DNA of 64,000 nucleotides, from the NCBI GenBank assembly GCA_965284665.1, contig OZ260108.1:1450588-1514587 (forward strand), given 5' to 3'. The notes beneath the pieces are model-generated. The model saw only the letters and a program-made list of their open reading frames with translations. It was not told the origin of the DNA and ran no database searches. A program made the translations under genes and the position numbers. The DNA is from Sphingomonadaceae bacterium. Lineage in GTDB: Bacteria > Pseudomonadota > Alphaproteobacteria > Sphingomonadales > Sphingomonadaceae. Below, piece after piece: positions 2,268 to 25,232 of the stretch (the first letter of the stretch is position 1; each line of letters begins with the position of its first letter).

Positions 2268-2277
2268 TCAATCAGCC

Positions 2278-6386: not shown

Positions 6387-6429
6387 GCGGAGGCCTTACG
6401 GCAGTTTGTCCATCTGGCGGATGAATTGC

Positions 6430-6458
6430 TTGACTTTGAAGTTGTCCGGACAAATCAT
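6430..6458 (+). promoter_or_regulatory. sigma70-like promoter with palindromic GntR/HutC-type operator TTGTCCGGACAA (6442-6453)
   Basis: TTGACT at 6430-6435; perfect 12-bp palindrome between the -35 and the putative -10; same core recurs at 12167 and 24132. Confidence 0.65.
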
Positions 6459-6505
6459 CCGTGCCAAGGCGGTCGCCACAAGCCCGTCAGGAGCACTCCG
6501 TTCGC

Positions 6506-7318
6506 ATGTTTGCCGCCAATTCCTTCCTGTTCGTGCCTGGCTCGCGGCCTGACCGGTTCGCGAAGGCGCATGGCAGCGGGGCAGGGCTGACGGTGATCGA
6601 CCTGGAAGATGCGGTTCCCGCTGAAGAGAAGGCTGCCGCGCGCAACAACGCGCTCGCGCAGGTCGCCAGCGGCGAGGCGGGCTGGGCGATCCGCATCAAT
6701 GGCCTGGCGACTGCCGCCGGAATTGCCGATCTGGCCGCACTGATCGAGGCCGAACATCTGCCGCCGTTCCTGTTCGTGCCGATGGTCGAAAGCGCGGTGG
6801 AGATCGAGTTCATTGCCCGCGCGCTGGGTGAACCTTGCCCCGAGCTGATCCCGCTGATCGAAACGCCCAAGGGCCTGCGCCAGGCGGTTGCCATCGCTTC
6901 CGCGCCCATGGTCGGCGGCGTGATGTTCGGCGGCGGAGATTTTTCAGGCGAGCTGGGCGTGGCACTGGCCTGGGAGCCGCTGCTCGCCGCGCGCCAGGCA
7001 CTGGTCCTGGCCTGCGCCGAGGCGCGGGTGCCGGCGATCGACGTGCCGTGGATCAGTTTGGATGACGAAACCGGCCTTGCCGACGAGTGCGCCAAGGCCA
7101 AGGCACTGGGCTTTGCTGCCAAGGCTGCGATCCACCCCAGCCAGGTGGCGGCAATCGAAGCCGCCTTTACCCCGACCGCGGCAGAAGTTGCCGAGGCCGA
7201 GGCGGCGCTCGCTGCCTATGAGGCGGCCGGGGGCAAGGTAATCCGTTTCAAGGGCAAGATGCTGGAAGCACCGCTGGTCAAGCGTTACCAGGCCGTGCTC
7301 AGCCGGAAAGGGAACTGA
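6506..7318 (+). CDS. CitE/HpcH-family CoA-ester C-C lyase (citramalyl/malyl-CoA lyase-like, RipC-like)
   Basis: LFVPGSRPDRF, IDLEDAV, IRING, LIET, FGGGD, KAAIHPSQV motifs; RBS AGGAG before ATG 6506. Confidence 0.9.
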   Translation: MFAANSFLFVPGSRPDRFAKAHGSGAGLTVIDLEDAVPAEEKAAARNNALAQVASGEAGWAIRINGLATAAGIADLAALIEAEHLPPFLFVPMVESAVEIEFIARALGEPCPELIPLIETPKGLRQAVAIASAPMVGGVMFGGGDFSGELGVALAWEPLLAARQALVLACAEARVPAIDVPWISLDDETGLADECAKAKALGFAAKAAIHPSQVAAIEAAFTPTAAEVAEAEAALAAYEAAGGKVIRFKGKMLEAPLVKRYQAVLSRKGN

Positions 7319-7320
7319 CA

Positions 7321-7830
7321 ATGCGTGATGGGGCTATCGAAGTCGCACCGGGCCGCTACCGCGAGACCTTTGGTCGCTATTTCGAGGATTTCAACGTCGG
7401 CGACATCTATGAGCATCGCCCGGGCCGCACGATCAGCGAGACTGACAACACCTGGTTCAGCCTGCTGACGATGAACCAGCATCCGGCGCACTGCGATGCC
7501 GAATATGCCAGCAAGACCGAATTCGGAAAGTGCCTCGTCGCCTCGCCGCTGACCGTGGCGATCATGACCGGTCAGTCCGTGTCGGACGTCAGTCAGAAGG
7601 CGGTCGCCAACCTGGGCTGGAAGGAAATCCGGCTGCTGAAGCCGGTCTTTGCCGGGGATACGATCTATTCGGAAACCGAAGTGCTGGAAAAGCGCGAGTC
7701 CGACAAGCGCCCGCAGCAGGGCATCGTGACGATCAAGACCGTGGGCAAGAACCAGCACGGCGATGTCGTCTGCGATTTCGTGCGGATCATGCTGATCTGG
7801 AAGCGCGGCTTCGGGCCTGGTGACGACTAG
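7321..7830 (+). CDS. MaoC-family (R)-enoyl-CoA hydratase/dehydratase (RipB/Ich-like)
   Basis: YFEDFNVGDIYEHRPGRTISETDN, MNQHPAH, PVFAGDT hot-dog fold motifs. Confidence 0.88.
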   Translation: MRDGAIEVAPGRYRETFGRYFEDFNVGDIYEHRPGRTISETDNTWFSLLTMNQHPAHCDAEYASKTEFGKCLVASPLTVAIMTGQSVSDVSQKAVANLGWKEIRLLKPVFAGDTIYSETEVLEKRESDKRPQQGIVTIKTVGKNQHGDVVCDFVRIMLIWKRGFGPGDD

Positions 7831-7853
7831 GGCGACGACTAAGGAGAATACCG

Positions 7854-9041
7854 ATGGCAACCGCCGTGGACATGATGAGCGATCAGGGCCGCACGATCGA
7901 TCCGGCCGAGGAAGAAGCCTTCCTCGATGCGATCGACCGCTGGATCGAGCGTTCGGTCAAGCCGGTGATCCTGCATCACGACCATAACGATATCTGGCCC
8001 GAGCAACTGGTGCACGAGATGGTCGAAATGGGCCTGTTCGGCGCGACCATCGGCCAGGAATTCGGCGGCCTCGGCCTGCCGGCCACGACCTATGCCAAGA
8101 TCGTCATGCGGATCAGCTCCTACTGGATGGCGCTGACCGGCATCTTCAATTCGCACCTGATCATGGCGGCGGCGGTCGAACGCTTTGGCACAACGGCGCA
8201 GAAGGCCAAGTGGCTGCCCAAGTTCGCCAACGGCGAGATCCGCGGCGGCCTGGCCCTGACCGAACCCAATGCCGGGACCGATCTTCAGGCGATCCGCACC
8301 GTCGCCCGCCGCGATGGCGATCACTATGTCATCAACGGCACCAAGACCTGGATCTCCAACGCGCTCAACGGCTCCTGCTTTGCGCTTCTGGTCAAGACCG
8401 ATCCCGATGCCAATCCGCGCTACAAGGGGATGAGCCTGTTCATCGCCGACAAGCGCGAAGGCTTCACCACCGGCAAGAAGTTCGACAAGCTTGGCTACAA
8501 GTCGATCGACAGCGCCGAGCTGATCTTCGAGGACTATCGCATCCCGGCCGACCAGCTGATCGGCGGCGTCGAAGGGCAGGGCTTCTTCCAGGCCACCGGC
8601 GGGCTGGAACTGGGCCGGATCAACGTTGCGGCGCGCGGGGTCGGCCTGTCGGAAGGTTCGCTGCGGCTCGCCACCGAATATGCCCAGCAGCGCCAGACCA
8701 TGGGCAAGCCGATTTCGGAGCACCAGGCGATCCAGCTCAAGATCGGCGAAATGGTTACCCGCGCCCGCGCTGCCCGATTGCTCACGCTCGATGCTGCCGT
8801 GGCCTATGACAAGGGTGAGCGCTGCGACCTTGAAGCCGGCATGGCCAAGTACTTCGCCAGCGAGGCGGCCGTGGCCAACAGCCAGGAAGCCATGCGGATC
8901 TATGGCGGCTACTCCTATTCGAAGGAGTATGACATCGAACGCTTCTACCGCGATTCCATGCTGATGTGCATCGGTGAGGGCACCAACGAGATGCAGCGAA
9001 TGATCATCTCCAAGCAGTGGGTCAAACGGAACCCGGCGTGA
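7854..9041 (+). CDS. Acyl-CoA dehydrogenase
   Basis: ALTEPNAGTD, NGTKTWISN, KLGYK, IYGGYSY, IGEGTNEMQR (catalytic Glu). Confidence 0.95.
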   Translation: MATAVDMMSDQGRTIDPAEEEAFLDAIDRWIERSVKPVILHHDHNDIWPEQLVHEMVEMGLFGATIGQEFGGLGLPATTYAKIVMRISSYWMALTGIFNSHLIMAAAVERFGTTAQKAKWLPKFANGEIRGGLALTEPNAGTDLQAIRTVARRDGDHYVINGTKTWISNALNGSCFALLVKTDPDANPRYKGMSLFIADKREGFTTGKKFDKLGYKSIDSAELIFEDYRIPADQLIGGVEGQGFFQATGGLELGRINVAARGVGLSEGSLRLATEYAQQRQTMGKPISEHQAIQLKIGEMVTRARAARLLTLDAAVAYDKGERCDLEAGMAKYFASEAAVANSQEAMRIYGGYSYSKEYDIERFYRDSMLMCIGEGTNEMQRMIISKQWVKRNPA

Positions 9042-10249
9042 GCGAGCTGCACCTTCCCCTCTCGGGCTTCCGCGTCATCAGCGCCGAACAATACGGCGCG
9101 GGCCCCTATGGCACGATGTTCCTGGCCCAGCTGGGTGCCGAGGTGATCAAGATCGAGCCGCCGCAAAAGGACGGGAAGGGCGGCGGCGATACCGCGCGCG
9201 GCGTTGGGCCGCATTTCACGCGGCCGGGGGAAAGCGTCTATTTCCACGCCTTCAACCTCAACAAGCGCTCGCTCACCCTCGATCTCAATGCGCCCGAAGG
9301 ACAGGCAATCCTCCGCGATCTGGCCGCGACCAGCCATGCCGTCGTCAACAACCTGCGCGGCGATCTGCCGGCCAAGCTGGGCGTGACCTATAACGCCTTG
9401 AAGGACGTCAACCCGGCGATTGTCTGCGCGCACCTGTCGGCCTATGGGCGCGACAACGCGCGGGCCAAGTGGCCGGGTTATGACTACCTGATGCAGGCCG
9501 AGGCGGGCTTTTGCGCGCTGACCGGCGACCCCGACGGTGAGCCGCAGCGGATGGGGCTCTCGATGGTCGATTTCATGACCGGCACGATCATGGCGATTGG
9601 CCTGCTGGCGGCGCTGATCGATGCCCAGCGCAGCGGGCAGGGGCGCGATGTCGATACCGACCTGCTCTCCGCCGCCGTGCACCAGACCAGCTATCCGGCG
9701 TTGTGGTACATGAACAACGGCGACGTCACCGGCCGCACCCCGCGTTCGGCCCATCCCAGCGCCACCCCCAGCCAGATGGTCAAGGCGGCGGATGGCTGGA
9801 TGTTCGTGATGTGCCAGTTGCCCAAGTTCTGGGACATCATGGTCGAACGGATCGGCCACCCTGAACTGGGCCAGGATCCGCGCTTCAAGACCAACCCCGA
9901 TCGGCTGGCCAACCGCGCCGCGCTGACCGAAGTGCTCGATGGCATCTTCTCGCGCCAGCCGATGGCGCATTGGCAGGCGCTGCTGGAGGGCCACGTGCCG
10001 GTAGCGCCGGTCTACCAGCTGGATCAGGCGCTCGATAACCCGTGGCTGCGGACGATCGGCATGCGTGACAGCGTGGCCCATCCCGACAATCCCGATTTCC
10101 AGGTCCTTGCCAGCCCGATCAAGCTTGATGGCCAGCGCCTGCCCAACCGCGCCGGGCCGCTGCTGGGGGCAGACTCCGCCGCTATCCTGGCCGAGCTTGG
10201 CTATGGCGAGGATGACTTTGCCCGGCTACGCTCCGCCGGCGTGGTCTGA
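9038..10249 (+). CDS. CoA-transferase family III (CaiB/BaiF)
   Basis: AGPYGTMFLAQLGAEVIKIE, NLNKRSLTLDL, GYDYLMQAEAG, VDFMTG; GTGA overlap with the ACAD stop. Confidence 0.93.
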   Translation: MSELHLPLSGFRVISAEQYGAGPYGTMFLAQLGAEVIKIEPPQKDGKGGGDTARGVGPHFTRPGESVYFHAFNLNKRSLTLDLNAPEGQAILRDLAATSHAVVNNLRGDLPAKLGVTYNALKDVNPAIVCAHLSAYGRDNARAKWPGYDYLMQAEAGFCALTGDPDGEPQRMGLSMVDFMTGTIMAIGLLAALIDAQRSGQGRDVDTDLLSAAVHQTSYPALWYMNNGDVTGRTPRSAHPSATPSQMVKAADGWMFVMCQLPKFWDIMVERIGHPELGQDPRFKTNPDRLANRAALTEVLDGIFSRQPMAHWQALLEGHVPVAPVYQLDQALDNPWLRTIGMRDSVAHPDNPDFQVLASPIKLDGQRLPNRAGPLLGADSAAILAELGYGEDDFARLRSAGVV

Positions 10250-10260
10250 CCGAGGGGGCG

Positions 10261-11346
10261 ATGGGCAAGCTGAGCGGCATCACCGTTGTCGACCTGACGC
10301 AGTTCCTGCCGGGCCCGGCAATGACCGTAATGATGGCCGATCAGGGCGCGCGGGTGATCAAGATCGAGCCGCGCGGCGGTGAGCCGGTGCGGAGCCAGGC
10401 GCCGTTCGAGAATGGCCAGTCGGTCTGGTTTGCCAATCTCAACCGCGGCAAGGAAAGCCGGGTGCTTGACCTCAAGAGCGACGAGGGCAAGGCGGCGCTG
10501 CGGGCGCTGATCGCCGAGGCCGATGTCTTTGTCGAAGGCTTCCGACCCGGCGTGATGAAGCGGCTGGGGTTCGATTACCCGGCGGTCCGCGCGCTCAATC
10601 GGCGCATCGTTTACTGCTCGATCTCCGCCTTCGGACAAGAGGGTGAGCTGGCGCACCATCCGGCGCATGACATGGCGGTCCAGGCACTCGCCGGGTTCAT
10701 GAGTGTTAATGACGGGTCAGACGGCACGCCAGTGGTACCGGGCGCGCCCAGCGCCGATCTTGCGGCCGGGCTGACCGCGCTTTCGGCCGTGCTGATGGCG
10801 CTGATCGGGCGCGAGCAGACGGGCGAGGGTGACTATATCGATGTCGCCATGTTCGACAGCCTGCTGCCGTGGTGCGCGCATACCGCAGGCAGCGCTATCG
10901 CCGGCGGGCCATCGCCCAAGTCGAGCGAGCAGCGTTCGCTCGGCGGGGCGGGGTTCTACCAGGTCTACAAGACCAGCGACGGCCGCCACGTCGTGCTCGG
11001 CGGGCGCGAGATCAAGTTCGCCACCAACCTGCTGACGGCGCTGGGCCGACCGGATCTGATTGCCCTGGCCGAACAGGATGCGGGGCCCGTCCAGGCGCCG
11101 CTGATCGCCTTCCTGCGCGAAACCTTCCTCACCAGGACCCGCGACGAGTGGGTGGAGTGGTTCCACGACAAGGACGTGGCCTTTGCCCCGGTGCTCGATT
11201 TCCGCGAAGCGCTGGATGAGCCGCATGTCGCCCAGCGCGGCTTGCTGGTTGAGGCCGATGGCCGCCACCATATCGCCCCGCCGATCCGCTTTGCGGGTGA
11301 AGCGCCATGGCAACCTGGCCCGGTGCCCGAACTGGGCGAGGGTTAG
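10261..11346 (+). CDS. CoA-transferase family III (CaiB/BaiF), second paralog
   Basis: DLTQFLPGP, GARVIKIE, NRGKES, EGFRPGVM, HDMAVQALAG, ADLAAG. Confidence 0.93.
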   Translation: MGKLSGITVVDLTQFLPGPAMTVMMADQGARVIKIEPRGGEPVRSQAPFENGQSVWFANLNRGKESRVLDLKSDEGKAALRALIAEADVFVEGFRPGVMKRLGFDYPAVRALNRRIVYCSISAFGQEGELAHHPAHDMAVQALAGFMSVNDGSDGTPVVPGAPSADLAAGLTALSAVLMALIGREQTGEGDYIDVAMFDSLLPWCAHTAGSAIAGGPSPKSSEQRSLGGAGFYQVYKTSDGRHVVLGGREIKFATNLLTALGRPDLIALAEQDAGPVQAPLIAFLRETFLTRTRDEWVEWFHDKDVAFAPVLDFREALDEPHVAQRGLLVEADGRHHIAPPIRFAGEAPWQPGPVPELGEG

Positions 11347-11352
11347 GGGATG

Positions 11353-12096
11353 TCAGCCGTCGACGTCGATATGCATCGAGTAGGCGAAGCGGTCGCCGGG
11401 ATGGTGGCTGACCGAGATTTCGAAAACGCGGCCCTTGGGGTCGATATAGCAGCGCAGAATCCGCAGCACCGGGCTGCCGCGCTTCAGATCCAGCGCCTTG
11501 GCAATATCGGCGCTGGCGGCCACCGCCTGGATATCCTGGGTAACCTTGCCGACGCTGACGCCCGCGAGCTGCTCGATCTGGCTGAACAGCGTGCCCGCGC
11601 CCAGGTCCAGCTTGGCCACGGCGGCATCGACGCTTTCGTGGAAATAGGCATCGGTCGCGGCAATCGGCTGGCCGTCGAGCTGCGGACTGCGCACGCCGCG
11701 GAAGCAGGTCCAGGCGCCGCTGGTGTCCTCGGCAATCTGCTCGGAAATATCGCGCGGCAGATCGCCGCGGCCGCGCGGCTCGTAGGTCACGTGGGTATCA
11801 CGCGCGTACTGCAGGATTTCGCCCACGTTGGAGAGCGGCTGGTGCAGCGTGCCGCCGCGCGCCGAGGCCGGCTGGACCACCGTGCCCGAGCCGCGCTTGC
11901 GGGCAATCAGCCCTTCGTTCTGCAGCCGGCGCAGCGCCTCGCGAATGGTAAAGCGCGACACGCCATAGCGCTGGCACAGGTCGCTCTCGGTCGGAAACTG
12001 ATCGCGCGCGGAAAACTTGCCGGAGAGGATTTCGGCGCGCAGTTCCCCGGCAACTTGCAGATAGCGGGGGGCTTCACGCTCACGCGGAATGGTCAT
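11353..12096 (-). CDS. GntR family regulator, HutC subfamily (wHTH + UTRA)
   Basis: PRYLQVAGELRAEILSG...PTESDLCQRYGVSRFTIREALRRL plus C-terminal UTRA-like domain; likely start ATG 12096. Confidence 0.92.
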   Translation of the reverse strand: MTIPREREAPRYLQVAGELRAEILSGKFSARDQFPTESDLCQRYGVSRFTIREALRRLQNEGLIARKRGSGTVVQPASARGGTLHQPLSNVGEILQYARDTHVTYEPRGRGDLPRDISEQIAEDTSGAWTCFRGVRSPQLDGQPIAATDAYFHESVDAAVAKLDLGAGTLFSQIEQLAGVSVGKVTQDIQAVAASADIAKALDLKRGSPVLRILRCYIDPKGRVFEISVSHHPGDRFAYSMHIDVDG

Positions 12097-12140
12097 GCTG
12101 GCCTTCAATCCTTGCTCCCATCGGCTCCACGGGGGCGCCC

Positions 12141-13373
12141 ATGAGCGAGCCCCTGCTGGTCCAACTTGTCCGGACACTAGCGCGCCCGATCACGGAAAGC
12201 GATAGGGCGCGTGCGCGGCTCCACTTGCTGGACTGGCTCGCCTGTGTCGCGGGCGCGCGCCAGACGCAAGTGGCCAAGGTGCTGTATGAGGCCGACCTGG
12301 GCGGTGCGCGCCGGGCCGGTTGGCTGGGCGGCGTGCTGGAGATGGACGATGTCCACCGCGCCGCACTGCTCCATCCCGGGCCGGTTATCTGGGCTGCGGC
12401 GCTCGAGGCGGCGGGCGATGTCGATGCCGATCTGGACGCCGTGCTTGATGGCGCTGTGCGCGGCTATCAGGCGATGATCGCGATCGGCGCCAGCTTCGAT
12501 GCGCATCACTATGCCCACTATCATAACACCGCGACGGCGGGCTCGTTCGGTGCCGCTGCGGCAGCCGGATCGGTGCTGAGCCTGGACGAAGGGCAGATGG
12601 TTGCGGCGCTCAGCAATGCCGGGTCGACCACTGGCGGCCTCTGGCAGATGCGCCACGAGGCCGGGATGACCAAGCAATGGCACGTCGCCATGGCCGGGAA
12701 CAATGGCTACTTCGCCGCCTATATGGCCTCGCGAGGGCTCTCCGGTACGGCTTCGGTGCTGGACGGGCCGCAAGGCCTTTACGCGGCGACCTGCGATGCG
12801 CCGAAGCCGCTGGAGCTGGGTGAGGGCTGGCGCATTCACGAGGTCAGCTTCAAGCCTTGGGCGGCCTGTCGCCATGCCCACCCGGTGATCGACTGCGCGC
12901 TGGAATTGCGGGCGCAGGGCAAGCTTGTCGCGCCGTTCCGGGTCGAGACTTATGCCGATGCCATCGCCTTCTGCGACCGGCCCAACCCGGTAACCGAGGT
13001 CGATGCCAAGTTCAGCCTGCAGCATGCCGTGGCCGTGATCGCCAGTGGACGCGAGGCGAAGCCGGAAGACTTTACGCCTGAGGCGATTGCCGAGCTGGCC
13101 CCGCTGCGGGCACAGGTTTCGATTTCGGAAGACAAAGCAATTACAGCGCGTTACCCAGCACACTTCGGTGCACGTGTGAATGGACTGGAACTGATCGACA
13201 CTCGCGGCGATCCGGAGCGGCCGGTGGATGAGGCGGCCATTCGGCACAAGATGCATACCCTTGCTGCCTGGGGCGGGCTGCCCGCCGATGAAGCCGAACG
13301 CGCCTGCGCCTTGGCGCTGGATGGCGATGATGCAGCGGCGATCGCTGACCTGCTGGAGGACTGGCTGGGATGA
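12141..13373 (+). CDS. MmgE/PrpD family protein
   Basis: LLDWLAC, LEMDDVH...HPGPV, KPWAACRHAH, AKFSLQ motifs. Confidence 0.9.
   Translation: MSEPLLVQLVRTLARPITESDRARARLHLLDWLACVAGARQTQVAKVLYEADLGGARRAGWLGGVLEMDDVHRAALLHPGPVIWAAALEAAGDVDADLDAVLDGAVRGYQAMIAIGASFDAHHYAHYHNTATAGSFGAAAAAGSVLSLDEGQMVAALSNAGSTTGGLWQMRHEAGMTKQWHVAMAGNNGYFAAYMASRGLSGTASVLDGPQGLYAATCDAPKPLELGEGWRIHEVSFKPWAACRHAHPVIDCALELRAQGKLVAPFRVETYADAIAFCDRPNPVTEVDAKFSLQHAVAVIASGREAKPEDFTPEAIAELAPLRAQVSISEDKAITARYPAHFGARVNGLELIDTRGDPERPVDEAAIRHKMHTLAAWGGLPADEAERACALALDGDDAAAIADLLEDWLG
12166..12177. promoter_or_regulatory. Second copy of the operator (TTGTCCGGACAC), inside the 5' end of the mmgE/prpD CDS and ~70 bp upstream of gntR
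   Basis: 11/12 match to the 6442-6453 palindrome. Confidence 0.55.
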
Positions 13374-13396
13374 ACCTCTTCACCCACCAACTCCAT

Positions 13397-13484
13397 CGTC
13401 GGCCCGTGCTTGACACGGGCCTTGGCTGTTCTTCGCGCAGCGGCGCAGGAAGAAGCCCAGCCCCGTGTCAAGCACGGGGTGACG
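13397..13484. repeat. CGTC-type REP palindrome dimer
   Basis: CGTCGGCCCGTGCTTGACACGGGCC...GCCCCGTGTCAAGCACGGGGTGACG; inverted arms; same unit at 23521-23604. Confidence 0.85.
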
Positions 13485-13500
13485 GAAGGTGGGTAGGGCG

Positions 13501-14778
13501 GTGACTCCCACGCAAGCCATTCTGCAATTTGCTGCCAAGCCTCATGAGCTGCCCGGGACTGTCCGCGCCGATGCGGTGCGATTGCTGGGCGATACCCTGG
13601 CAGTCGGCGCAGCGGGGACGACCGCGCCGGGGGCCGAAGCCATCCTGGCGGCGGCGCGGGCGATGGGCAGCGGCGCCGATGCCCGCCTGATCGGCACGGC
13701 CGAACGCTTGCCCGCACCGGGGGCGGCCTTCGTCAACGGCTATCGGATCCACTGCCTGGAATGGGACGCGGTCCACGAACCGGCCGTGGTTCACGCCATG
13801 AGCGTCGTGACCGCAGCCCTTGGCGCAGCGATTGACCGCAAGGGCGGCTGCGATCCCGAACACGCGCTGGTGGCGCTCGCCATCGGCGTTGATGTCGCTT
13901 CGGGCCTCGGCATTGCCGCGGACTCGGCGCTCAGTTTCTTCCGTCCGGCCACGGCCGGGGTGATCGGGGCAGCGCTGGCCGTGGCGCGGATCGATGGTGC
14001 ACCGCTGGAGCATGCGCTGGGCCTGGCCTATTCGAGCGCAGCCGGGACGATGCAGGCGCACGTCGAAGGCTCGATCACCCTGCCATTCCAGATCGCCAAT
14101 GCCGCCCGCGCGGCGGTGACTGCCAGCGATCTGGCCAAGGCCGGCTTCACCGCGCCGCTCGATCCGCTGGAGGGGCCGTTCGGGTACTTCAAGCTGATCG
14201 ATCAGGGCGACCTGTCGCGCTATACCCGCGAGCTTGGTCAGGTCTGGCGGATTGCCGAGATCAGCACCAAGCCGTTCCCGTCGGGCCGGGCCAGCCATGC
14301 GGCGCTGGGGGCCTTGCAGGCCTTGGCAGGGCGGGGCGTCGAGCGGATCGAACTCGCCTGTCCCCCGCTGATCCACCGTCTGGTCGGGCGGCCTTACAAG
14401 TCTGACATGACGCCTGCTTATGCGAGGCTGTGCCTGCCGTTCCTGGCGGCGCTGATGCTCACCGACGGCCGGATCGACCCGCGCCGCTTCACGGCGGAAA
14501 ACTTCGCCGATCCGGCGCTCGCGGCGCTGGCCGGCAAGGTCGCGCTGGTGGCGGACGGCAATGCCGATCCCAACGCCCTTTTCCCGCAGGAACTGCGCGT
14601 CACGGTGGGCGGCGCCACGCAGACCATCGCCGTGCCGCACACGCTGGGCAGCCCCGATGCGCCGCTTTCGCCGGCCCAGACCCAGGCAAAGCTTGATTTC
14701 GCCCGTGAACTTGCGCCGGCCGGACACGACCCGCGCCTGTTCACCGATCCCCTGGCCTATTTCACGGACCCGACATGA
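13501..14778 (+). CDS. MmgE/PrpD family protein, second divergent paralog
   Basis: LLGDTLAVGAAG, LEWDAVHEPAVVH, KPFPSGRASH; likely GTG start 13501 (ORF opens at 13489). Confidence 0.9.
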   Translation: MTPTQAILQFAAKPHELPGTVRADAVRLLGDTLAVGAAGTTAPGAEAILAAARAMGSGADARLIGTAERLPAPGAAFVNGYRIHCLEWDAVHEPAVVHAMSVVTAALGAAIDRKGGCDPEHALVALAIGVDVASGLGIAADSALSFFRPATAGVIGAALAVARIDGAPLEHALGLAYSSAAGTMQAHVEGSITLPFQIANAARAAVTASDLAKAGFTAPLDPLEGPFGYFKLIDQGDLSRYTRELGQVWRIAEISTKPFPSGRASHAALGALQALAGRGVERIELACPPLIHRLVGRPYKSDMTPAYARLCLPFLAALMLTDGRIDPRRFTAENFADPALAALAGKVALVADGNADPNALFPQELRVTVGGATQTIAVPHTLGSPDAPLSPAQTQAKLDFARELAPAGHDPRLFTDPLAYFTDPT

Positions 14779-16133
14779 GTTTCCCGACTTACTTCGAAGC
14801 CTTCGACATCAAGCAGATGCTGGCCGATTACCCGGTCGGGAATGCCTTTACCGCGCGCTATCGCAATATCAGCCGGGATGAGATCTTCGCGATCCAGGAT
14901 GCCCAGTTCCGGCGGCTGATGCAGCGCGGCTGGCAGATCCCGTTCTACCAGCGCCTGTGGGGCGCGCAGGGGATCGAGCCAGGCGACATCATGGGCCTCG
15001 CCGACATCACCAAGCTGCCGGTCTATGACAAGTCGGACCTGATGGCCTCGGTCAACGAGCACCCGCCCTATGGCGATTTCGACGGGCGTGGCGATACGCC
15101 GGTGGTGTTCCACACCACCAGCGGCACCACTGGCCGACCACAACCGCTGATGTTCGGGCCCAAGGGGCGCGAGGTGACCAACCTGCTGGTCGGGCGGATG
15201 TACCGCTGGATGGGGCTGAAGCCGGAAGACGTGGTCCATTCGGTCTATGGCCACGGCATGATCAACGGCGGGCATTACATCCGCGAGGCGGTGACGCACT
15301 TCACCAATTCGCTGTTCCTGTCCGCCGGGACGGGGATCGAAACACGCTCGGTCAACCAGGTGAACCTGCTGGCGGACTTCGGGGTGACGGTGATGGTCGG
15401 CTTCGTCGATTACATCAGGAAGCTGGCCGAAGTTGCTGAAGCGGAGCAGCTTTTTGACCGGATCAAGCTGCGGATGATCATCGGCCACCTTGGCACCGAA
15501 GACCGCGCCGCGACCGAAGCGGCCTGGCACGGCGCCAAGGCCTATGACTGGTACGGGGTTGGCGATACCGGCTCGATCGCCGGCGAGGGGCCTGACCGCG
15601 ACGGGCTCTATGTCTGGGAAGATGCGCAGTACCTCGAGCTGCTCGATATCGAGAGCGGCACGCCGGTGGCCAGGGGAGAGACCGGGGACATGGTCGTAAC
15701 CTGCCTGTTCAAGGACGACATCGCCCCCTGCATCCGCTTCAACACCCACGACATCACCCATGAGCTCGATGGGCGGGGCGAGCTGGGCTTCAAGCGGATC
15801 GCCGGTTTCAAGGGCCGCAGCGACAACATGGTCAAGCTGCGCGGGATCAACCTGTTCCCCCACGCCATCGCCGCGCTGATCGAGAACCGGCCCGACCTGA
15901 CCGGTGAATATGTCTGCCACCTGCGCCGCGATGCCGCGACCCAGCGCGACGACATGGTGGTGACGATCGAAAGCCGCGGCGGCAGCAACGCGGGCGAACT
16001 GGCCGAAGTGCTGCGCCGGGGCCTGGGCGTGGAAGTGGCGGTTCAGCTCTGCGCGCCGGGCGAAACGGCCGCCGCAACCCAGATTGATACCCGCCAGAAG
16101 CCGATCCGCCTGATCGACGAGCGCGGTGTGTAA
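14775..16133 (+). CDS. Phenylacetate-CoA ligase (PaaK)-like acyl-CoA ligase
   Basis: P-loop HTTSGTTGRP, YGVGD, GRSDNMVKLRGINLFP. Confidence 0.88.
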   Translation: MSFPTYFEAFDIKQMLADYPVGNAFTARYRNISRDEIFAIQDAQFRRLMQRGWQIPFYQRLWGAQGIEPGDIMGLADITKLPVYDKSDLMASVNEHPPYGDFDGRGDTPVVFHTTSGTTGRPQPLMFGPKGREVTNLLVGRMYRWMGLKPEDVVHSVYGHGMINGGHYIREAVTHFTNSLFLSAGTGIETRSVNQVNLLADFGVTVMVGFVDYIRKLAEVAEAEQLFDRIKLRMIIGHLGTEDRAATEAAWHGAKAYDWYGVGDTGSIAGEGPDRDGLYVWEDAQYLELLDIESGTPVARGETGDMVVTCLFKDDIAPCIRFNTHDITHELDGRGELGFKRIAGFKGRSDNMVKLRGINLFPHAIAALIENRPDLTGEYVCHLRRDAATQRDDMVVTIESRGGSNAGELAEVLRRGLGVEVAVQLCAPGETAAATQIDTRQKPIRLIDERGV

Positions 16134-17290
16134 TGTCGGACCGCTGGGGCGCCTTCGTCGATCTCGATCCTGACGCCCGGGGCGGCGAGGGGCCGCTGGC
16201 GGGGCTGACCGTGGGGGTGAAGTCCAACATCATGGTCAAGGGCCTGCCCTGGACCGGCGGAATGGGCCTCTACCGTGACCGGATCGCCAGCCGCGATGCC
16301 GAAGTGGTCACCCGCCTGCGCACCGCCGGGGCGGCGATCCTGGGCACGGTCAACATGCACGAGGCGGCGCTGGGGGCCCATACCGACAATGCCTTCTACG
16401 GCCGCACGCACAATCCGCACCGGCATGACTATACCCCCGGGGGCTCGTCCGGCGGCAGCGGCGCGGCGGTCGCGGCGGGGCTGTGCGACCTGGCCTTGGG
16501 TACCGATACAATGGGTTCGGTTCGGATCCCGGCGGCCTATTGCGGGGTCTATGGTCTTAAGCCGACAAATGGCGCGATCAGCGAGGATGGCCTCGCCTTT
16601 TTGGAGCCCAGCCTCGACTGCATCGGACCGCTCGCCGTCAGCCTCGATGTGCTGGAACAAGCCTGGCCGATCCTGGCCACCGATCCGGGCCATGCGGTCA
16701 CGTTCACGCGCGCCTTCGTGCTGGGTCGCCAAGGCGAAGTTGAGGTTCAGCCTGCCGTCACGGCCGGCTTCGAAGCTGCGCTGCGCGCTCTACCGCTGAC
16801 GCCCACAACGCTCGACTTGCCCGACAGCCTGACCGATATCCGCATGGCCGGACTTGTTGCGGCAGGGCAGTGGTTGATCGCCGATCTCGGCCCCGAATAC
16901 CGCGAGGACAATCCCGGCCTGTCGGACGAGCTCAAGTTCATCCTCAAGATCACCGCCGGGATGGAGCAGCGACCCGCAGTGCTGGCCCGCACCCGCACCG
17001 CCTTGCGCGAGGCGCTGGGCAACGATGCCGTGGTGATCATGCCGACCGCGCCGCAAGTGGCCTTTCCCCATGGCACCCGCGCCCCGTCCAACCAGGCGGA
17101 CTTTACCTGCCTGGCCAACGTCGCCGGGCTGCCCGCGCTGGCGCTGCCGTCAGGGAGGAGCGAGGATGGCCTGCCGGTCAGCGTCCAGCTGGTCGGCCCG
17201 CCGGGCAGCGAGCCGGGGCTGATAGCGCTGGCCCGCCAGCTAGATAACCAGTTGCAAGCTTACCGCCGTCCGCCAAACATCGAGATCTGA
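16133..17290 (+). CDS. Amidase signature family enzyme
   Basis: GVKSN (Lys), PGGSSGGSGAAVAAG, GTDTMGSVRIPAA (Ser-cisSer-Lys triad). Confidence 0.93.
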   Translation: MSDRWGAFVDLDPDARGGEGPLAGLTVGVKSNIMVKGLPWTGGMGLYRDRIASRDAEVVTRLRTAGAAILGTVNMHEAALGAHTDNAFYGRTHNPHRHDYTPGGSSGGSGAAVAAGLCDLALGTDTMGSVRIPAAYCGVYGLKPTNGAISEDGLAFLEPSLDCIGPLAVSLDVLEQAWPILATDPGHAVTFTRAFVLGRQGEVEVQPAVTAGFEAALRALPLTPTTLDLPDSLTDIRMAGLVAAGQWLIADLGPEYREDNPGLSDELKFILKITAGMEQRPAVLARTRTALREALGNDAVVIMPTAPQVAFPHGTRAPSNQADFTCLANVAGLPALALPSGRSEDGLPVSVQLVGPPGSEPGLIALARQLDNQLQAYRRPPNIEI

Positions 17291-17303
17291 AGGGAGAGAA
17301 ACC

Positions 17304-17609
17304 ATGCGCATCGTCTGCCTGTTCAACCTGAAGGAAGGCGCCAGCCGCGAAGCCTATGAAGCCTGGGCGCGGGGGACCGACATTCCCGGCGTCAATGCGC
17401 TCGGCTCGGTCCGCGGCTTCACTGTCCACCGCGCCACCGGCCTGTTCGGTTCGGATGCCAAGCCGCCCTATGATTACATCGAGGTGATCGACATTCACGG
17501 CATGGATGCCTTCGTGGCCGATGTCTCCGATCCCGAATTCCAGAAGGTAGCCGCCGGGTTTGGCGAATTTACCGACAACCCGACCTTCATCCTGACCGAG
17601 GACCTCTGA
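17304..17609 (+). CDS. REDY-like protein HapK / EthD-like dimeric alpha-beta barrel
   Basis: LFNLK...YEAWARGTDIPGVNAL.SV, PPYDYIEVIDI pattern, 101 aa; family recognised from memory. Confidence 0.72.
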   Translation: MRIVCLFNLKEGASREAYEAWARGTDIPGVNALGSVRGFTVHRATGLFGSDAKPPYDYIEVIDIHGMDAFVADVSDPEFQKVAAGFGEFTDNPTFILTEDL

Positions 17610-17611
17610 AA

Positions 17612-18409
17612 ATGGGCCGGTTCGCGGGCAAGACCATCGTCGTTACCGGCTCGGGCAAGGAAAAGGGCCTGGGCCAGGGCATCTTGCGCCGCTTTGCGGA
17701 CGAGGGCGCGAACTGCGTCGTCTCGGACCTGCGGATCGATGCCGAGGCCGAGGGCGTTGCCGATGACCTGCGCGCGCGCGGCGTGAAGGTGGCGACGATT
17801 GCCTGCGACGTGTCCGATCCGGCCCAGTGCCAGGCCCTGGTCGATCAGGCGGTCGCGGCGCTGGGTTCGGTCGATGTCTTCGTCAACAATGCCGGGATCG
17901 GGTTCATGATGAAGCCGATGCTGGAGGTCGATCCGAAAGACTGGGCGACGGTCATCGCGGTGAACCTCTCAGGCGCGTTCTATTGCACCCAGGCGGCGGC
18001 CAAGGCGATGATTGCCGCTGGCAAGGGCGGGCGGATCATCAACATCGCCAGCCAGGCGGCCAAGACCGGCTTCCCGCACCTGCCGGCCTATGTGAGTTCG
18101 AAGCACGGCTTGGTCGGCCTGACCCGCGCGACGGCTGTGGAGCTGGGTGCGCACGGCATCACCGTCAATGCCGTCTGCCCGAACCACGTCACCACTGGCC
18201 TTGGCGCGCAGCAGAACGAGTATTTCTCCAAGCTGCTCGGGTTCGACACGGTCGAGGCCTACCTCAAGAATATGGCCGCCAAGAACCCGATGGGCCGCCC
18301 GGGCCTGCCGAGCGATACGGCCGCCGCTTGCGCCTGGCTCGCCAGCGATGACGCCTTTTACGTCACCGGCGAAGCGCTGAACGTGAGCGGCGGCGAGGAG
18401 ATGCATTGA
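17612..18409 (+). CDS. SDR family NAD(P)-dependent oxidoreductase
   Basis: TGSGKEKGLG, NNAG, NIAS, YVSSK (YxxxK). Confidence 0.94.
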   Translation: MGRFAGKTIVVTGSGKEKGLGQGILRRFADEGANCVVSDLRIDAEAEGVADDLRARGVKVATIACDVSDPAQCQALVDQAVAALGSVDVFVNNAGIGFMMKPMLEVDPKDWATVIAVNLSGAFYCTQAAAKAMIAAGKGGRIINIASQAAKTGFPHLPAYVSSKHGLVGLTRATAVELGAHGITVNAVCPNHVTTGLGAQQNEYFSKLLGFDTVEAYLKNMAAKNPMGRPGLPSDTAAACAWLASDDAFYVTGEALNVSGGEEMH

Positions 18410-19275
18410 TGCGAGAGGAACGGATGGACCTGCCCGGCGGCGCCAGGATGGCGCTGTCGGTCGTGGTCAATGTCGAGGAAGGCAGCGAACAGACCATCGC
18501 CCGCGGCGACAAGGGGATGGAGCCAGTCGACGAGCTGGGCATCTTCATCAAGGCCCCGATCCGCAACTATGCGAACGAGAGCAATTACCTCTACGGGATC
18601 AAGGCGGGCGCGCCGCGCGTGGTCAAGCTGCTGAAAGCTTTCGACATCATGGCGAGCTGGACGGTGGCGGCACTGTCGCTCGAGAACCATCCGGAGATTG
18701 CCGAGGCCATCGTCGAGCTGGGGCACGAGCCGGTCAGCCACGGCTGGCGCTGGGTCCATCAGTTCCGTCTGAACGAGGAGCAGGAGCGCGAGTTCATCCG
18801 CAAGGCCGTGGCGAGCATCGAAAAGACCTGTGGCGTGCGCCCCTATGGCTGGCTGTCGCGCTATATGCTGACCGACAACACCCGCCGCCTGCTGATCGAG
18901 GAGGGCTTCTCCTACCACATGGACGATTACAGCGGCGACGTGCCGTTCTGGGATCGCGAGACGGTAACCGGCAAGCCGATGGTGATTGTGCCCTACCAGC
19001 TCGACAACAATGACATGAAGATGTGGACCGATCCGGCCATGACGCCTGAGCAGTGGTTGGCCTATGCCAAGCGCAACTTCGACCAGGTCTATCGCGAAGG
19101 CGTGGAAGGCAATCCCAAGATGATGAGCCTGGGGCTACACCTGCGGATAATCGGCCGGCCGGGACGGATCTGGGCGCTGGAGGAGTTCTTCAAGCACGTC
19201 CGCCAGCACGACGGGGTCTGGGTGACGACGCGCAAGGCAATTGCCGATCACTATGCCCAGACGGTGCCGGCATGA
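18409..19275 (+). CDS. Polysaccharide deacetylase fold, PuuE/allantoinase-like amidohydrolase
   Basis: VVVNVEEG, HGWRW, GWLSR, GLHLRIIGRPGR match the PuuE-type pattern. Confidence 0.85.
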   Translation: MREERMDLPGGARMALSVVVNVEEGSEQTIARGDKGMEPVDELGIFIKAPIRNYANESNYLYGIKAGAPRVVKLLKAFDIMASWTVAALSLENHPEIAEAIVELGHEPVSHGWRWVHQFRLNEEQEREFIRKAVASIEKTCGVRPYGWLSRYMLTDNTRRLLIEEGFSYHMDDYSGDVPFWDRETVTGKPMVIVPYQLDNNDMKMWTDPAMTPEQWLAYAKRNFDQVYREGVEGNPKMMSLGLHLRIIGRPGRIWALEEFFKHVRQHDGVWVTTRKAIADHYAQTVPA

Positions 19276-20024
19276 CGCTGCGCCTCACCACTGGCCAACA
19301 CGTCGCCCGGCTGTTCATCGACCGGGCGGACAAGCGCAACGCCTTCAACCAGGCGATGTGGGAGCAGCTGCCCGAACTGGTGTTGCAGGCCATGGCCGAT
19401 CCGGCGGTGCGGGTGCTGACGATCGAATCTGCCCATCCCGGCGTGTTCTGCGCCGGGGCGGATATTGCCGAGCTGCTCGCCAACAAGGACGATGCCCAGT
19501 GGCGATCGGCCAATCAGGCCGCAATCAACCGCGCCCAGCACGTGCTGGCCCGCGCGGATAAGCCAGTGATCGCCTATATCGATGGCGATTGCGTCGGCGG
19601 TGGCTGTGGGATTGCCCTGGCGGCCGACATCCGCGTTGCGACGCCGCGCGCGCGGCTGGGGATCACCCCGGCCAAGCTGGGGCTGGTCTATCCGCTGCAT
19701 GACACCAAGCTGCTGGTCGATCTGGTCGGTCCGGGGCATGCCAAGCGCATGCTCTATACCGGGATGCTGCTGGATGCGCATGAAGCGCTGCGGATCGGGC
19801 TGGTCGATGAGATCGCCGATAGCCCCGGCCATCTCGAAGACGTGATCGCCGCCAATTCGCTCCATTCGACCAGCGGCATGAAGCGGTTCGTGCGCCGCGT
19901 GCTCGATGGCCAGGCCGATGACGATGCGGAGACGCTGGAAGTGTTCGCGCAGGCCTTCACCGGGCCGGATTTCCTCGAAGGGACCAGCGCCTTCGTTGCC
20001 AAGCGCAAGCCGGAGTTCAAGTGA
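19272..20024 (+). CDS. Crotonase (enoyl-CoA hydratase/isomerase) superfamily, lacking the canonical Glu pair
   Basis: KRNAF, FCAGADI, GGGCGIALAAD, TPAKLGLVY, FVAKRKPEFK. Confidence 0.9.
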   Translation: MTLRLTTGQHVARLFIDRADKRNAFNQAMWEQLPELVLQAMADPAVRVLTIESAHPGVFCAGADIAELLANKDDAQWRSANQAAINRAQHVLARADKPVIAYIDGDCVGGGCGIALAADIRVATPRARLGITPAKLGLVYPLHDTKLLVDLVGPGHAKRMLYTGMLLDAHEALRIGLVDEIADSPGHLEDVIAANSLHSTSGMKRFVRRVLDGQADDDAETLEVFAQAFTGPDFLEGTSAFVAKRKPEFK

Positions 20025-20920
20025 TGGCCATTCCCCATGGAACGATCATGGGCGGGCTCTCAGTGGTGCCGGACGTGTCCGCTGCGCTCGCCGATTACCA
20101 GGGCGTGTTGCAGCTCGATCTGGTGCACGAAGGCCCGCTGCCGGCTGACCTCGCGGCGAGCTGGGGCTGTCCGGCCAGCGCCGGCGCGCGCCATGCCGTG
20201 TTGCGGCCCAAAAGCGGCAACCCGTGCTGGTTCCGGCTGGTCGAACAGCCCGACCATCCCGAGTTCAAGCCGACCACCACCTTTGGCTGGGGCGCCTTCG
20301 AGTGCACGGTCGAGGACGTGTTCGGCTGGCCCGACCGGCTTCAGGGCAGTGGCTTCACCATCGTGGGTGAACCGCGCGAGCTTCCGGGGATGGATGCCTT
20401 CATCCCAATGCAGGTGCTCGGCACCGGGCGCGAGATGGTTTACCTGAACCAGGTCTTCAACGACATGGCGAACGTCGATCTGCCGCGCGCGCAGTCGATC
20501 ACCGACCGGATCTTCATCGTCATTCTCGGCACGCCGAGCCGGGCGGAATCTTGCCGCTGGTACCAGGAGCGGCTGGGGCTGGAGCCGGTCGATACCTTTG
20601 AACTGCCCTATGCCATGATCAATGACGCCTTCGGTCTGCCGGCGGACTATATCTCCGCGCTGACCATGGTTCAGGCCGGGCGGCTGCCGATTGTCGAGGT
20701 GGACGATTACCCTGAGCAGGCGCGGCCGCGTGCCCGCCATGCCGGGATGCTGCCGCCAGGCAATGCGCTGGTGACGCTGGCGATGCGCGATCTGGCTGCC
20801 TGCCAGGTGGACTGGATTGCGCCCCCGGTGGCCCGCGACGGCGCGCTTTATGAAGGCCGCCGTGCGGGCACCTGCCTGGGCTATGCCGGGGAACTGATCG
20901 AACTGGTTGAGGTGGGTTGA
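20021..20920 (+). CDS. VOC/glyoxalase-like two-domain protein
   Basis: Repeated beta-alpha-beta-beta-beta units, SCRWYQERLG, terminal ELIELVE; translationally coupled. Confidence 0.6.
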   Translation: MMAIPHGTIMGGLSVVPDVSAALADYQGVLQLDLVHEGPLPADLAASWGCPASAGARHAVLRPKSGNPCWFRLVEQPDHPEFKPTTTFGWGAFECTVEDVFGWPDRLQGSGFTIVGEPRELPGMDAFIPMQVLGTGREMVYLNQVFNDMANVDLPRAQSITDRIFIVILGTPSRAESCRWYQERLGLEPVDTFELPYAMINDAFGLPADYISALTMVQAGRLPIVEVDDYPEQARPRARHAGMLPPGNALVTLAMRDLAACQVDWIAPPVARDGALYEGRRAGTCLGYAGELIELVEVG

Positions 20921-21228
20921 TGGCGCTCTATTGCATTCACGCGATTGATGGACCGGATGGTGCGGAAATCCGCCTGCGGCTGATCGGGGCGCACCTTGCC
21001 CATGTCGAGGCGCATATTGATCGCTACTTCGTCGCCGGACCGCTCAAGAATGCAGAGGGGCAGACCATCGGTTCGATGCTGGTGGTCGAGGCGGCGGATG
21101 AGGCCGATGCCCGCGCATTCCTCGATGCGGACCCCTATGCCGGGGCGGGGTTGTGGAGCCAGATCCACGTCGCCGCCTTTGCCGCCGTGGCGGGCACCAG
21201 CGTGGGTGGGGCGGCCTGGAAGAAGTAG
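20920..21228 (+). CDS. YciI family protein
   Basis: R...HLAHV, AGPL, GSMLVVEA, DPY motif. Confidence 0.88.
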   Translation: MALYCIHAIDGPDGAEIRLRLIGAHLAHVEAHIDRYFVAGPLKNAEGQTIGSMLVVEAADEADARAFLDADPYAGAGLWSQIHVAAFAAVAGTSVGGAAWKK

Positions 21229-21232
21229 CCGC

Positions 21233-21249
21233 CCCGGTCCCTTACCGGG
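21233..21249. terminator. Small hairpin between convergent yciI and S46 peptidase genes
   Basis: CCCGGT-ccctt-ACCGGG. Confidence 0.4.
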
Positions 21250-23382: not shown

Positions 23383-23520
23383 TCAGGCACTCTCCGTTAT
23401 TGACTGGCGCACAACGGAATCGCCGGGCGCACCACTGCGGCTCGCCAAAGCGCAAGATCGCGCCGCGCACAAGCCGGATCGTGGGGCAGGGTGTGGTGTT
23501 GGGAGCGAACGAAAAGCCAA

Positions 23521-23604
23521 GCCCCGTGTCAAGCACGGGGCGACGGATTGGTGTTACAATAGCAGATATCAAAAAATTATCGTCGCCCCGTGCTTGACAC
23601 GGGG
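23521..23604. repeat. Two CGTC-type REP units flanking a 35-bp AT-rich spacer
   Basis: GCCCCGTGTCAAGCACGGGGCGACG (23521-23545) and CGTCGCCCCGTGCTTGACACGGGG (23581-23604). Confidence 0.85.
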
Positions 23605-23630
23605 TTGGGCTACCTTCCGTCGGCAGCGCC

Positions 23631-24089
23631 TTAAGGCGCCGGCTTAACATCCGGCGTGGTGTTGTCCATGTCGCGCCACAGCAGCCAGCCTTTGCCCTTG
23701 CGCTTGTAGATCAGCATCGAGCGGCCGGCGCTCTTGATGGCGGGTTTGCCGGGGAGCTGCGCGGTCATCCAGTACTTGGCAACAAGGATCCCCAGCTTGC
23801 CCTCAATCACGATGTGCTCGGGCTCGAAACGGAAGGCGATGGTTGCGCCCTGATCCTTGAAGCGGCGCAGGTAGGCGATGATCGCATCGGCGCCCTTCGC
23901 GGCCGGGGCCTTGTCGGTCATCAGCCAGGCGTCGTCGGTATAGAGCTTGCGCAGCGCCGCCCAGTCGCCGGCGGAATAGGCCGCGTTCCACAGGTCGCCC
24001 TGCGCGGCAATTTCGGCCTGCTGGTCGCGCGCCAGGGCGGCGGTTGGCAGCAGCGCCAGCGCGAGGGCGCATAACAGAGTTCGGATCAT
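23631..24089 (-). CDS. Secreted NTF2/SnoaL-like (DUF4440/YybH) protein
   Basis: Signal peptide; WNAAYSAGDWAAL..LYTDDA, GRSMLIYKR; RBS AGGAG before ATG 24089. Confidence 0.8.
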   Translation of the reverse strand: MIRTLLCALALALLPTAALARDQQAEIAAQGDLWNAAYSAGDWAALRKLYTDDAWLMTDKAPAAKGADAIIAYLRRFKDQGATIAFRFEPEHIVIEGKLGILVAKYWMTAQLPGKPAIKSAGRSMLIYKRKGKGWLLWRDMDNTTPDVKPAP

Positions 24090-24130
24090 CGCAGCGCTCC
24101 TCAGGGGATCAGACGCGCAGCATTGCAAAG

Positions 24131-24142
24131 ATGTCCGGACAA
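24131..24142. promoter_or_regulatory. Third copy of the operator (ATGTCCGGACAA) in the divergent 24089/24175 promoter
   Basis: 14-bp identity TGTCCGGACAAATC with 6443-6456; preceded by TTGCAA (-35-like). Confidence 0.65.
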
Positions 24143-24174
24143 ATCCATAGTCCTTGGCAGCTGAAGGACCTGTC

Positions 24175-24939: not shown

Positions 24940-25232
24940 CCGCCTGGATGATCGTTACTGCAAGGATCCATGACCGCGAGAAGTTCATCACCGGCTATGG
25001 GCCAGCGGCGGCCAAGTTGATCGGCCAGTTCGGGGGCAAGTACATCGTCCGCGCGCCCGGCGCCGAAGTGCTGGAGGGCGAGGGTTGGCCGGGCGCCTCG
25101 GTTGTCATCTCCGAGTGGCCCGACAAGGCCGCGATCATGGCCTTCTGGAACTCGCCCGAATATGCCGAGGTGAAGAAGCTGCGCGAGGGGCTGGCCGATG
25201 TCTCGATCCAGGTGATCGAGCAGCCGGGCTAG
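24936..25232 (+). CDS. DUF1330 family protein
   Basis: FGGKYIVR, EVLEG, VISEWP, FWNSPEYAEVKKLR. Confidence 0.88.
   Translation: MTAWMIVTARIHDREKFITGYGPAAAKLIGQFGGKYIVRAPGAEVLEGEGWPGASVVISEWPDKAAIMAFWNSPEYAEVKKLREGLADVSIQVIEQPG

Follow-up and report, generated by a model that had tools for sequence, protein, structure and literature searches.

A 64,000-nucleotide (64-kb) stretch of the genome of a freshwater Novosphingobium (the window) carries a ten-base palindromic sequence, TGTCCGGACA, at three places: in the promoter of a lyase operon (site 1), beside the regulator gene gntR (site 2) and between two divergent genes, one for a DUF4440 protein and one for a secreted protein (site 3). The regulator, a 247-residue member of the HutC subfamily of GntR proteins, is encoded between the first two sites (11353..12096, minus strand). 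On the evidence of motif conservation, promoter geometry and the DNA-reading residues of the protein, the three copies are very probably operators of this local GntR, together forming one regulon, present across the Sphingomonadales, with the protein as its proposed repressor.

Occurrence of the core motif

Counting both strands, the window has exactly three copies of the core, at 6443-6452, 12167-12176 and 24132-24141. A null (random) model, based on 100 dinucleotide-preserving shuffles of the window, gave a mean of 0.08 copies and a maximum of two; none of the 100 shuffles reached three. The preliminary description of this DNA had claimed that the 10-mer is present just three times in 64 kb, and the count and its low chance expectation bear this out; the 12-mers that it quoted, and the 14 bp that sites 1 and 3 have in common (TGTCCGGACAAATC), also proved correct on re-reading of the sequence. 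Allowing one mismatch adds a single match, at 20168 (TGTCCGGCCA, within a glyoxalase-family gene), giving a total of four where 1.9 are expected, which is the level of chance.

Motif copies were counted within the window and within related loci. Interrogating a genome collection with the GntR protein produced 80 loci (L001-L080; 57-100% protein identity, 1.34 Mb in all) from Novosphingobium, Sphingopyxis, Erythrobacter, Altererythrobacter, Sandarakinorhabdus, Blastomonas, Parasphingopyxis and others. These contain 150 exact copies of the 10-mer, compared with approximately two expected. When the copies are aligned, the core proves to lie at the centre of a longer perfect palindrome of 18 bp, AATTTGTCC|GGACAAATT (written whole, AATTTGTCCGGACAAATT); sequences that differ from this 18-mer by up to four bases occur 157 times in the 80 loci and twice in shuffled loci. 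The window sites depart from the 18-bp consensus at two (site 1), five (site 2) and three (site 3) positions. When the window was scanned for the 18-mer with up to five mismatches, exactly these three sites were recovered, with just two extra matches, at 43501 and 49679, each of which has two mismatches in the core and was treated as noise.

Chance matches can be rejected as the source of the three copies, given that no shuffle reached three and that the positions are conserved across genera. The related notion of a non-regulatory repeat, be it an RNA hairpin or a restriction/modification site, draws on nothing beyond the palindrome TCCGGA contained in the core. Folding of the palindrome as RNA is no better than that of shuffled sequence (z-scores from -0.65 to +0.96), and taken together we regard chance or a non-regulatory repeat as scarcely credible. 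When the text of 8.3 million papers was searched for TGTCCGGACA, the only matches were p53 and unrelated primer sequences.

Conservation among related loci

Neither the window nor the approximately 1.3 Mb of related loci revealed scattered copies. A crude gene caller based on GC3 placed 34 of the 157 sites deep in coding sequence; almost every one of them corresponds in position to an intergenic site that is covered by a spurious long open reading frame (ORF), and for this reason the figure is not evidence of intragenic sites. Phylogenetic footprinting, which the preliminary description had proposed as a check, finds the motif kept, not lost, at orthologous promoters across genera. The positional equivalent of the lyase-operon site, for instance, is present in 58 of the 80 loci.

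The genes that stand behind motif copies are not homologous to one another: they include the lyase operon, a gene for a DUF1838 protein, two genes for TonB-dependent receptors, a membrane protein, a 208-aa secreted protein, the homologue of window gene 24175-24939 and gntR itself. Because the motif precedes non-homologous genes, common ancestry of one promoter cannot account for its spread. Several targets carry more than a single operator: the divergent DUF1838 gene often has two, 37-40 bp apart, and the gene for the membrane protein (224-259 aa) has a pair separated by 42 bp. In other genera the 208-aa secreted protein and a following DUF4440 gene form an operon with an operator at its head.

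In Sphingomonas rustica (L071) an orthologue with 60% identity to the GntR protein is encoded in a different cluster, comprising aconitase-like large and small subunits, an HMGL-like lyase and a family III CoA-transferase. This locus contains three exact motifs, at 3961, 10827 and 12948. Here the same pairing of regulator and operator has been put to use in another pathway of dicarboxylate type.

Most variant cores differ by a single CpG transition, and the one-mismatch forms include TGTCCAGACA and TGTCTGGACA. The former is the fixed form ahead of one TonB-receptor gene in at least 15 loci. The operator of this receptor gene is fixed as AATTTGTCCAGACAAATT, a single CpG transition, at about 19.3 kb in at least 15 loci among L013-L077 (for example L018, 19385); it may be a deliberately weaker site.

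The regulator and its relation to HutC-type repressors

The GntR protein has the architecture of its subfamily, an N-terminal GntR winged helix-turn-helix (wHTH; Pfam GntR, 4.5e-21) and a C-terminal UTRA effector domain of the chorismate-lyase fold (4.3e-19). It matches NagR/YvoA of Bacillus subtilis over its full length (E 5e-19), and the alignment is free of gaps through the DNA-binding domain. Of the regulator genes in the 80 loci, gntR alone is conserved.

HutC operators follow the consensus GTMTAKAC, in which GT and AC stand four nucleotides apart (PMC4494728). The motif reads T-GT-CCGG-AC-A within its 18-bp perfect dyad and so has the GT-N4-AC spacing; the central TA of the consensus is replaced, the operator being GTC-CG-GAC, with the C at M and the G at K both fitting. 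The CG centre is present in all 150 exact copies, which were selected on the core itself. The preliminary description had matched the spacing to the GT-N4-AC type of HutC-subfamily operators, with a CG centre, and both domains and spacing agree with this. We conclude that the CG-centred site is a variant of the HutC operator and does not exclude the assignment. Nor is it unprecedented, because IolR_BCV1 of Beutenbergia has predicted CG-centred sites (ATGTCCGGACAT and TTGTCCGAACAT; Suvorova et al. 2015, PMC4494728, supplementary file 2). These share the same core, IolR_BCV1 itself being only a prediction. The likeness ends there: actinobacterial IolR belongs to an unrelated protein lineage (recognition helix SRPTARRAL, compared with SRFTIREAL here), governs an inositol regulon and has different operator flanks.

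The most informative comparison is with NagR/YvoA and with DasR of Streptomyces and its dre operators, HutC-subfamily repressors for which DNA complexes have been solved and which are released from DNA by effectors (PMC4333415). Like the protein described here, both combine a GntR wHTH with a UTRA domain, and their operators, like the motif, are palindromes in which four bases separate GT from AC. In NagR bound to DNA, Arg48 reads the G at -4, Arg38 reads the G at -5 and the wing with Gly69 contacts the minor groove (PMC4333415). Across the 80 orthologues Arg48 and Gly69 are invariant, and the operator keeps the G at -4, also invariant; position 38, in contrast, is Ser or Thr and never Arg, and -5 carries a T in place of G. 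The T at -5 matches the loss of Arg38, and the two are consistent with a paired change. Position 49, which is Met in NagR, is Phe or Tyr, and the dyad centre is CG rather than TA. A further difference lies in what is regulated: NagR and DasR control an amino-sugar regulon, whereas the cluster described here is a catabolic one of acyl-CoA/dicarboxylate type.

The positions of the sites also follow the HutC pattern of autoregulation and local targets, in that the operator adjoins the regulator gene (site 2) and the adjacent catabolic promoter (site 1). From these data we infer binding by this protein. It is nevertheless conceivable that the operator is real and is bound by a regulator encoded elsewhere. 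The 80 loci were chosen for carrying gntR, which makes the co-occurrence of regulator and motif among them partly a matter of design, and some loci recovered through the secreted protein of site 3 (see below) have the motif with no gntR inside the 6-kb flank. We consider a distant regulator improbable: the geometry of an 18-bp dyad with GT-N4-AC suits a HutC dimer, the motif adjoins gntR in about 30 loci, the cluster has no other conserved regulator gene, the DNA-reading residues match the half-site (Arg48 with G at -4, Ser/Thr38 with T at -5), and the 60% orthologue of L071 retains the same motif in another gene context.

Site 1 and the lyase promoter

Site 1 (6439..6456, AAGTTGTCCGGACAAATC) is set within the lyase-operon promoter (6430..6458, plus strand), which consists of a -35 element TTGACT (6430-6435), a 17-nt spacer that holds the operator core, and a -10-like AATCAT (6453-6458) that overlaps the right flank of the operator. 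This was the sole promoter-like match in a promoter scan of 6300-6600. To follow the arrangement across relatives, 39 lyase-promoter sequences were anchored on the operator and the identity of each column calculated. Identity is 80-100% between the -35 element and a point about 20 nt beyond the dyad centre and falls to 30-40% outside this block, whose flanks have diverged to the random level. TTGAC[T/A] stands 7 nt before the core in 38 of the 39 sequences; the core is followed at once by AATTGT, AATTAT or AATCAT, hexamers that are -10-like at a spacing of 17 nt. Since the operator fills the spacer and overlaps the -10, its position is that of steric repression. The preliminary description had located site 1 between TTGACT and the -10 of the lyase operon, and the same geometry recurs in all but one of the 39 sequences.

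A perfect left half-site, AGTTTGTCC, is present at 6403..6411, 36 bp upstream of site 1, with its right half destroyed. Other genera have a complete second operator at this position, for the divergent DUF1838 gene, and the half-site looks like a relic of such an operator.

The operon behind site 1 (6506..11346, plus strand; Pfam, NCBIfam and public gene calls in L081) encodes an HpcH lyase like Ccl/RipC (6506-7318), a MaoC hydratase like Ich/RipB (7321-7830), an acyl-CoA dehydrogenase (7854-9041) and two family III CoA-transferases (9038-10249 and 10261-11346), all assigned by Pfam and NCBIfam. The start codon of the lyase (ATG 6506), and that of mmgE (ATG 12141), follow the public gene calls of L081 (GCA_965284625.1, a 3.1-Mb Novosphingobium chromosome).

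Site 2, within mmgE

Site 2 (12163..12180, AACTTGTCCGGACACTAG) had been placed at the junction between gntR and mmgE. The gap between the two genes is 12097-12140, and the site lies beyond it, inside mmgE: because the ATG and N-terminus of mmgE are conserved among orthologous loci, we assign it to codons 9-12 (CTT GTC CGG ACA, Leu-Val-Arg-Thr). The core begins 27 and ends 36 nt after the mmgE ATG and is 71-80 nt before the gntR ATG (12096). A comparison of this junction in 79 orthologous loci showed that 29 have the site with no more than one core mismatch and three more with two, the rest being without it; where it is present its distance to the gntR start, about 80 nt, is conserved.

An operator in this position raises the question of whether site 2, alone among the three, is a by-product of coding for Leu-Val-Arg-Thr with no regulatory role, leaving a regulon of sites 1 and 3. 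Its place inside an ORF, its absence from about half of the orthologous loci and its outer flank (CTAG), which differs from the consensus, would all fit such an explanation. Set against this, the residues are dispensable: loci that have no site 2 encode AAS, GRR, SAH or SER at the same positions, and so Val-Arg-Thr is not required of MmgE. Two of the codons are rare (CTT supplies 8% of Leu and ACA 3.4% of Thr), with a joint chance of 3e-4 from codon usage. The variants are single CpG transitions that impose a radical change of Arg to Gln or Trp yet keep nine of the ten core bases, and the distance to gntR is maintained. A coding by-product is thus an unlikely account of site 2, somewhat less so than a distant regulator. 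These patterns of codons and substitutions argue that site 2 is held by selection at the level of DNA: an operator that lies within the codons of a gene and is kept there by the use of rare ones.

The best reading of site 2 is probably that of an autoregulatory operator of gntR, while a role as a roadblock for transcription of mmgE is possible. Control of the mmgE operon, which would follow from site 2 alone, is the weakest link in the regulon and is accordingly less certain. Because about half of the loci have no junction site, neither autoregulation nor control of mmgE is universal. The earlier claim that GntR represses all three units therefore stands best for sites 1 and 3, which conservation supports, and less well for the mmgE unit, with site 2 kept in approximately 30 of 79 loci.

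The possible target operon at site 2 (12141..21228, plus strand; Pfam, NCBIfam) is syntenic with gntR in most of the 80 loci. It encodes two MmgE/PrpD proteins, only distantly related to IRG1 and to IDS epimerase, together with a PaaK-like CoA ligase, an amidase, a HapK/EthD-like protein, a short-chain dehydrogenase/reductase (SDR), a PuuE-like deacetylase, an enoyl-CoA hydratase (ECH), a two-domain glyoxalase-family protein and a YCII protein.

Directly after the core of site 2, at 12177-12184, is the sequence CTA GCG CG (Leu-Ala-Arg of MmgE), which uses a very rare Leu codon (CTA 1.6%, TTA 0.3%). In the form (C/T)TA GCG CG it is kept in nearly all of the 80 loci, even those that have no site 2. 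It may be a second signal at the DNA level, such as a -10 element for gntR, which on the strand of that gene would read CTAnTG.

Site 3 and the divergent genes

Site 3 (24128..24145, AAGATGTCCGGACAAATC) occupies the centre of an 85-bp gap between the ATG of the DUF4440 gene (24089, minus strand) and that of the secreted-protein gene (24175, plus strand), and its core ends 33 nt before the latter. The site is beyond the flanks of the first 80 loci, and its conservation was therefore measured in a metagenome scan that used the secreted protein alone, independently of gntR. Among 22 loci with an upstream region (protein identity 51-96%), 20 have the motif ending 14-43 nt before the start of the gene; in the other two the gene is internal to an operon, one of which is headed by the motif. 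The divergent partner is a DUF4440 gene in close relatives and, elsewhere, a 208-aa protein and DUF1838.

The plus-strand operon (24175..25232) comprises the gene for the 254-aa secreted protein, which has no Pfam family (24175-24939), and a DUF1330 gene (24936-25232); stop and start overlap as ATGA, the two genes are translationally coupled, and L083-L097 retain the pair. The target on the minus strand is a DUF4440/SnoaL-like secreted protein (23631..24089). The independently collected loci support the proposal that the regulon extends to the genes for DUF4440, the secreted protein and DUF1330.

The same cannot be said of the S46 peptidase gene (21250-23382, minus strand), which the preliminary description included in the span of the regulon and which is found only in close Novosphingobium relatives. 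Two GC-rich hairpins, mutual reverse complements, follow the DUF4440 stop on the minus strand (23521..23604): CCCCGTG-TCAAG-CACGGGG and CCCCGTG-CTTGA-CACGGGG, at 23521-23541 and 23586-23604, the one at 23521-23541 being followed by a T-run. They probably end the DUF4440 transcript ahead of the S46 peptidase gene, and may be either a pair of terminators or a scar of the S46 insertion. Because these terminator-like hairpins follow DUF4440, the peptidase is probably not co-transcribed and probably lies outside the regulon. In other genera the mmgE operon is followed immediately by the genes for the secreted protein and DUF4440.

Literature searches for DUF1838, and for this combination of genes in sphingomonads, returned nothing relevant.

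Predicted mode of regulation

We propose that a dimer of GntR would bind the 18-bp palindrome with one winged helix-turn-helix on each half-site. At site 1 the bound repressor, sitting in the spacer between -35 and -10, would exclude RNA polymerase from the lyase promoter. At site 3 a single central operator would serve both the DUF4440 gene and the divergent operon of the secreted protein and DUF1330, and at site 2, about 75 nt upstream of gntR, negative autoregulation is the most likely outcome, although the bound protein may also impede transcription into the mmgE operon. Release from DNA would follow binding of a pathway metabolite to the UTRA domain. Because the L071 orthologue sits in a dicarboxylate-type cluster with the same motif, there are hints that the effector is a branched dicarboxylate, of C5 type, or its CoA ester.

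Beyond the way in which the 80 loci were assembled, a number of observations weigh against this account. About half of the orthologous loci have no recognizable site at the gntR/mmgE junction, and a position downstream of the mmgE start codon is a weak one for repression. The consensus promoter scan found no hexamers above threshold at site 2, nor at site 3, where TTGCAA-N17-CATAGT (24123-24151; a promoter score of 8/12) can be picked out by eye. Among the sequencing runs listed for the organism none is labelled RNA; each is given as DNA (a guess) or has an undetermined type, and the search was not restricted to RNA.

The scarcity of clear promoter elements at sites 2 and 3 leaves some room for the idea that GntR binds the sites and acts at one or more of them as an activator or dual regulator. 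The sign of regulation is something that we infer, and three considerations make activation a poor candidate: in 38 of 39 lyase-promoter sequences the operator takes up the spacer and runs into the -10-like hexamer, a placement that excludes RNA polymerase; the core of site 3 ends so close to the ATG of the secreted-protein gene; and the characterized relatives NagR and DasR are repressors.

Pathway and significance

The catabolic genes recall the itaconate/methylsuccinate cluster of Pseudomonas and Cupriavidus, which consists of Ict, Ich, Ccl, methylsuccinyl-CoA dehydrogenase and an MmgE/PrpD methylsuccinate isomerase (PMC12290011). The HpcH lyase, MaoC hydratase, acyl-CoA dehydrogenase, family III CoA-transferase and MmgE/PrpD protein all have counterparts within 6506-14778. 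Scores in the NCBIfam equivalog models fall short of the level for equivalence (lyase, NF038242, 227 bits against 375; hydratase, NF038241, 225 bits against 340), and by this comparison the lyase and hydratase are homologous to RipC and RipB but not confidently isofunctional with them. The cluster differs also in having two CoA-transferases and two MmgE/PrpD proteins, in a large additional module that encodes a CoA ligase, an amidase, a PuuE-like hydrolase, an SDR, an ECH and a glyoxalase-family protein, in a regulon that elsewhere adds TonB receptors and secreted DUF proteins, and in a regulator that is a HutC-type GntR. The Salmonella regulator RipR is of the LysR type.

Several small proteins are encoded in the proposed regulon: HapK/EthD-like (17304-17609), YCII (20917-21228) and DUF1330 (24936-25232), all of which we take to be dimeric families of the alpha/beta-barrel type. 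Together with the SnoaL-like DUF4440 protein, this set hints at chemistry of an isomerase or oxygenase type on a hydrophobic substrate.

The mechanism itself, a local HutC-type repressor with a palindromic operator, is textbook. Of wider interest is that the operator ties an uncharacterized, conserved catabolic cluster of freshwater and marine Sphingomonadales to TonB receptors and to half a dozen secreted or membrane proteins, and in doing so supplies a testable functional context for DUF1838, DUF4440 and DUF1330. The 18-bp motif is high in information and usable for prediction of the regulon genome-wide in Sphingomonadales. The pairing of Arg38 to Ser/Thr with G to T at -5, and of Phe/Tyr49 with the CG centre, provides natural change pairs for the study of GntR specificity.

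More tentatively, and with rather less than even confidence, we suggest that these elements belong to an undescribed regulon found throughout the Sphingomonadales, devoted to TonB-dependent uptake and breakdown of a compound bearing an amide or imide, which would be funnelled to a CoA module resembling that for itaconate/methylsuccinate. Ser/Thr38 and Phe/Tyr49 would form the reading head for the CG-centred operator, one copy of which would be held within the codons of a target gene by selection on DNA that overrides protein sequence. If this is true, DUF1838, DUF4440, DUF1330 and three families that have no Pfam model acquire their first functional context.

The TonB receptor at the window start

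A pair of genes for an RND pump (an HlyD-type adaptor and AcrB, 2206-6386) separates the lyase operon from a TonB receptor that runs into the start of the window (1-2187). In L001, whose GntR is 96% identical, the receptor gene is directly followed by the lyase promoter with no pump between them, and since the two adjoin there the pump looks like a lineage-specific insertion.

The preliminary description had suggested that an operator might also be found upstream of this receptor, 5' of base 1. The source contig L081 has no site of the TGTCCGGACA type there. What precedes the receptor is a different palindrome, TTGTATACAA, a FadR-type box (L081 6207-6323, approximately 340-455 nt before base 1 of the window). 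Divergent from the receptor are a gene for an FCD-type (FadR-subfamily) GntR and an operon encoding HMGL-like, hydantoinase A/B and CoA-transferase proteins; judging from this arrangement, the receptor probably belongs to a separate regulon with a FadR-type operator.

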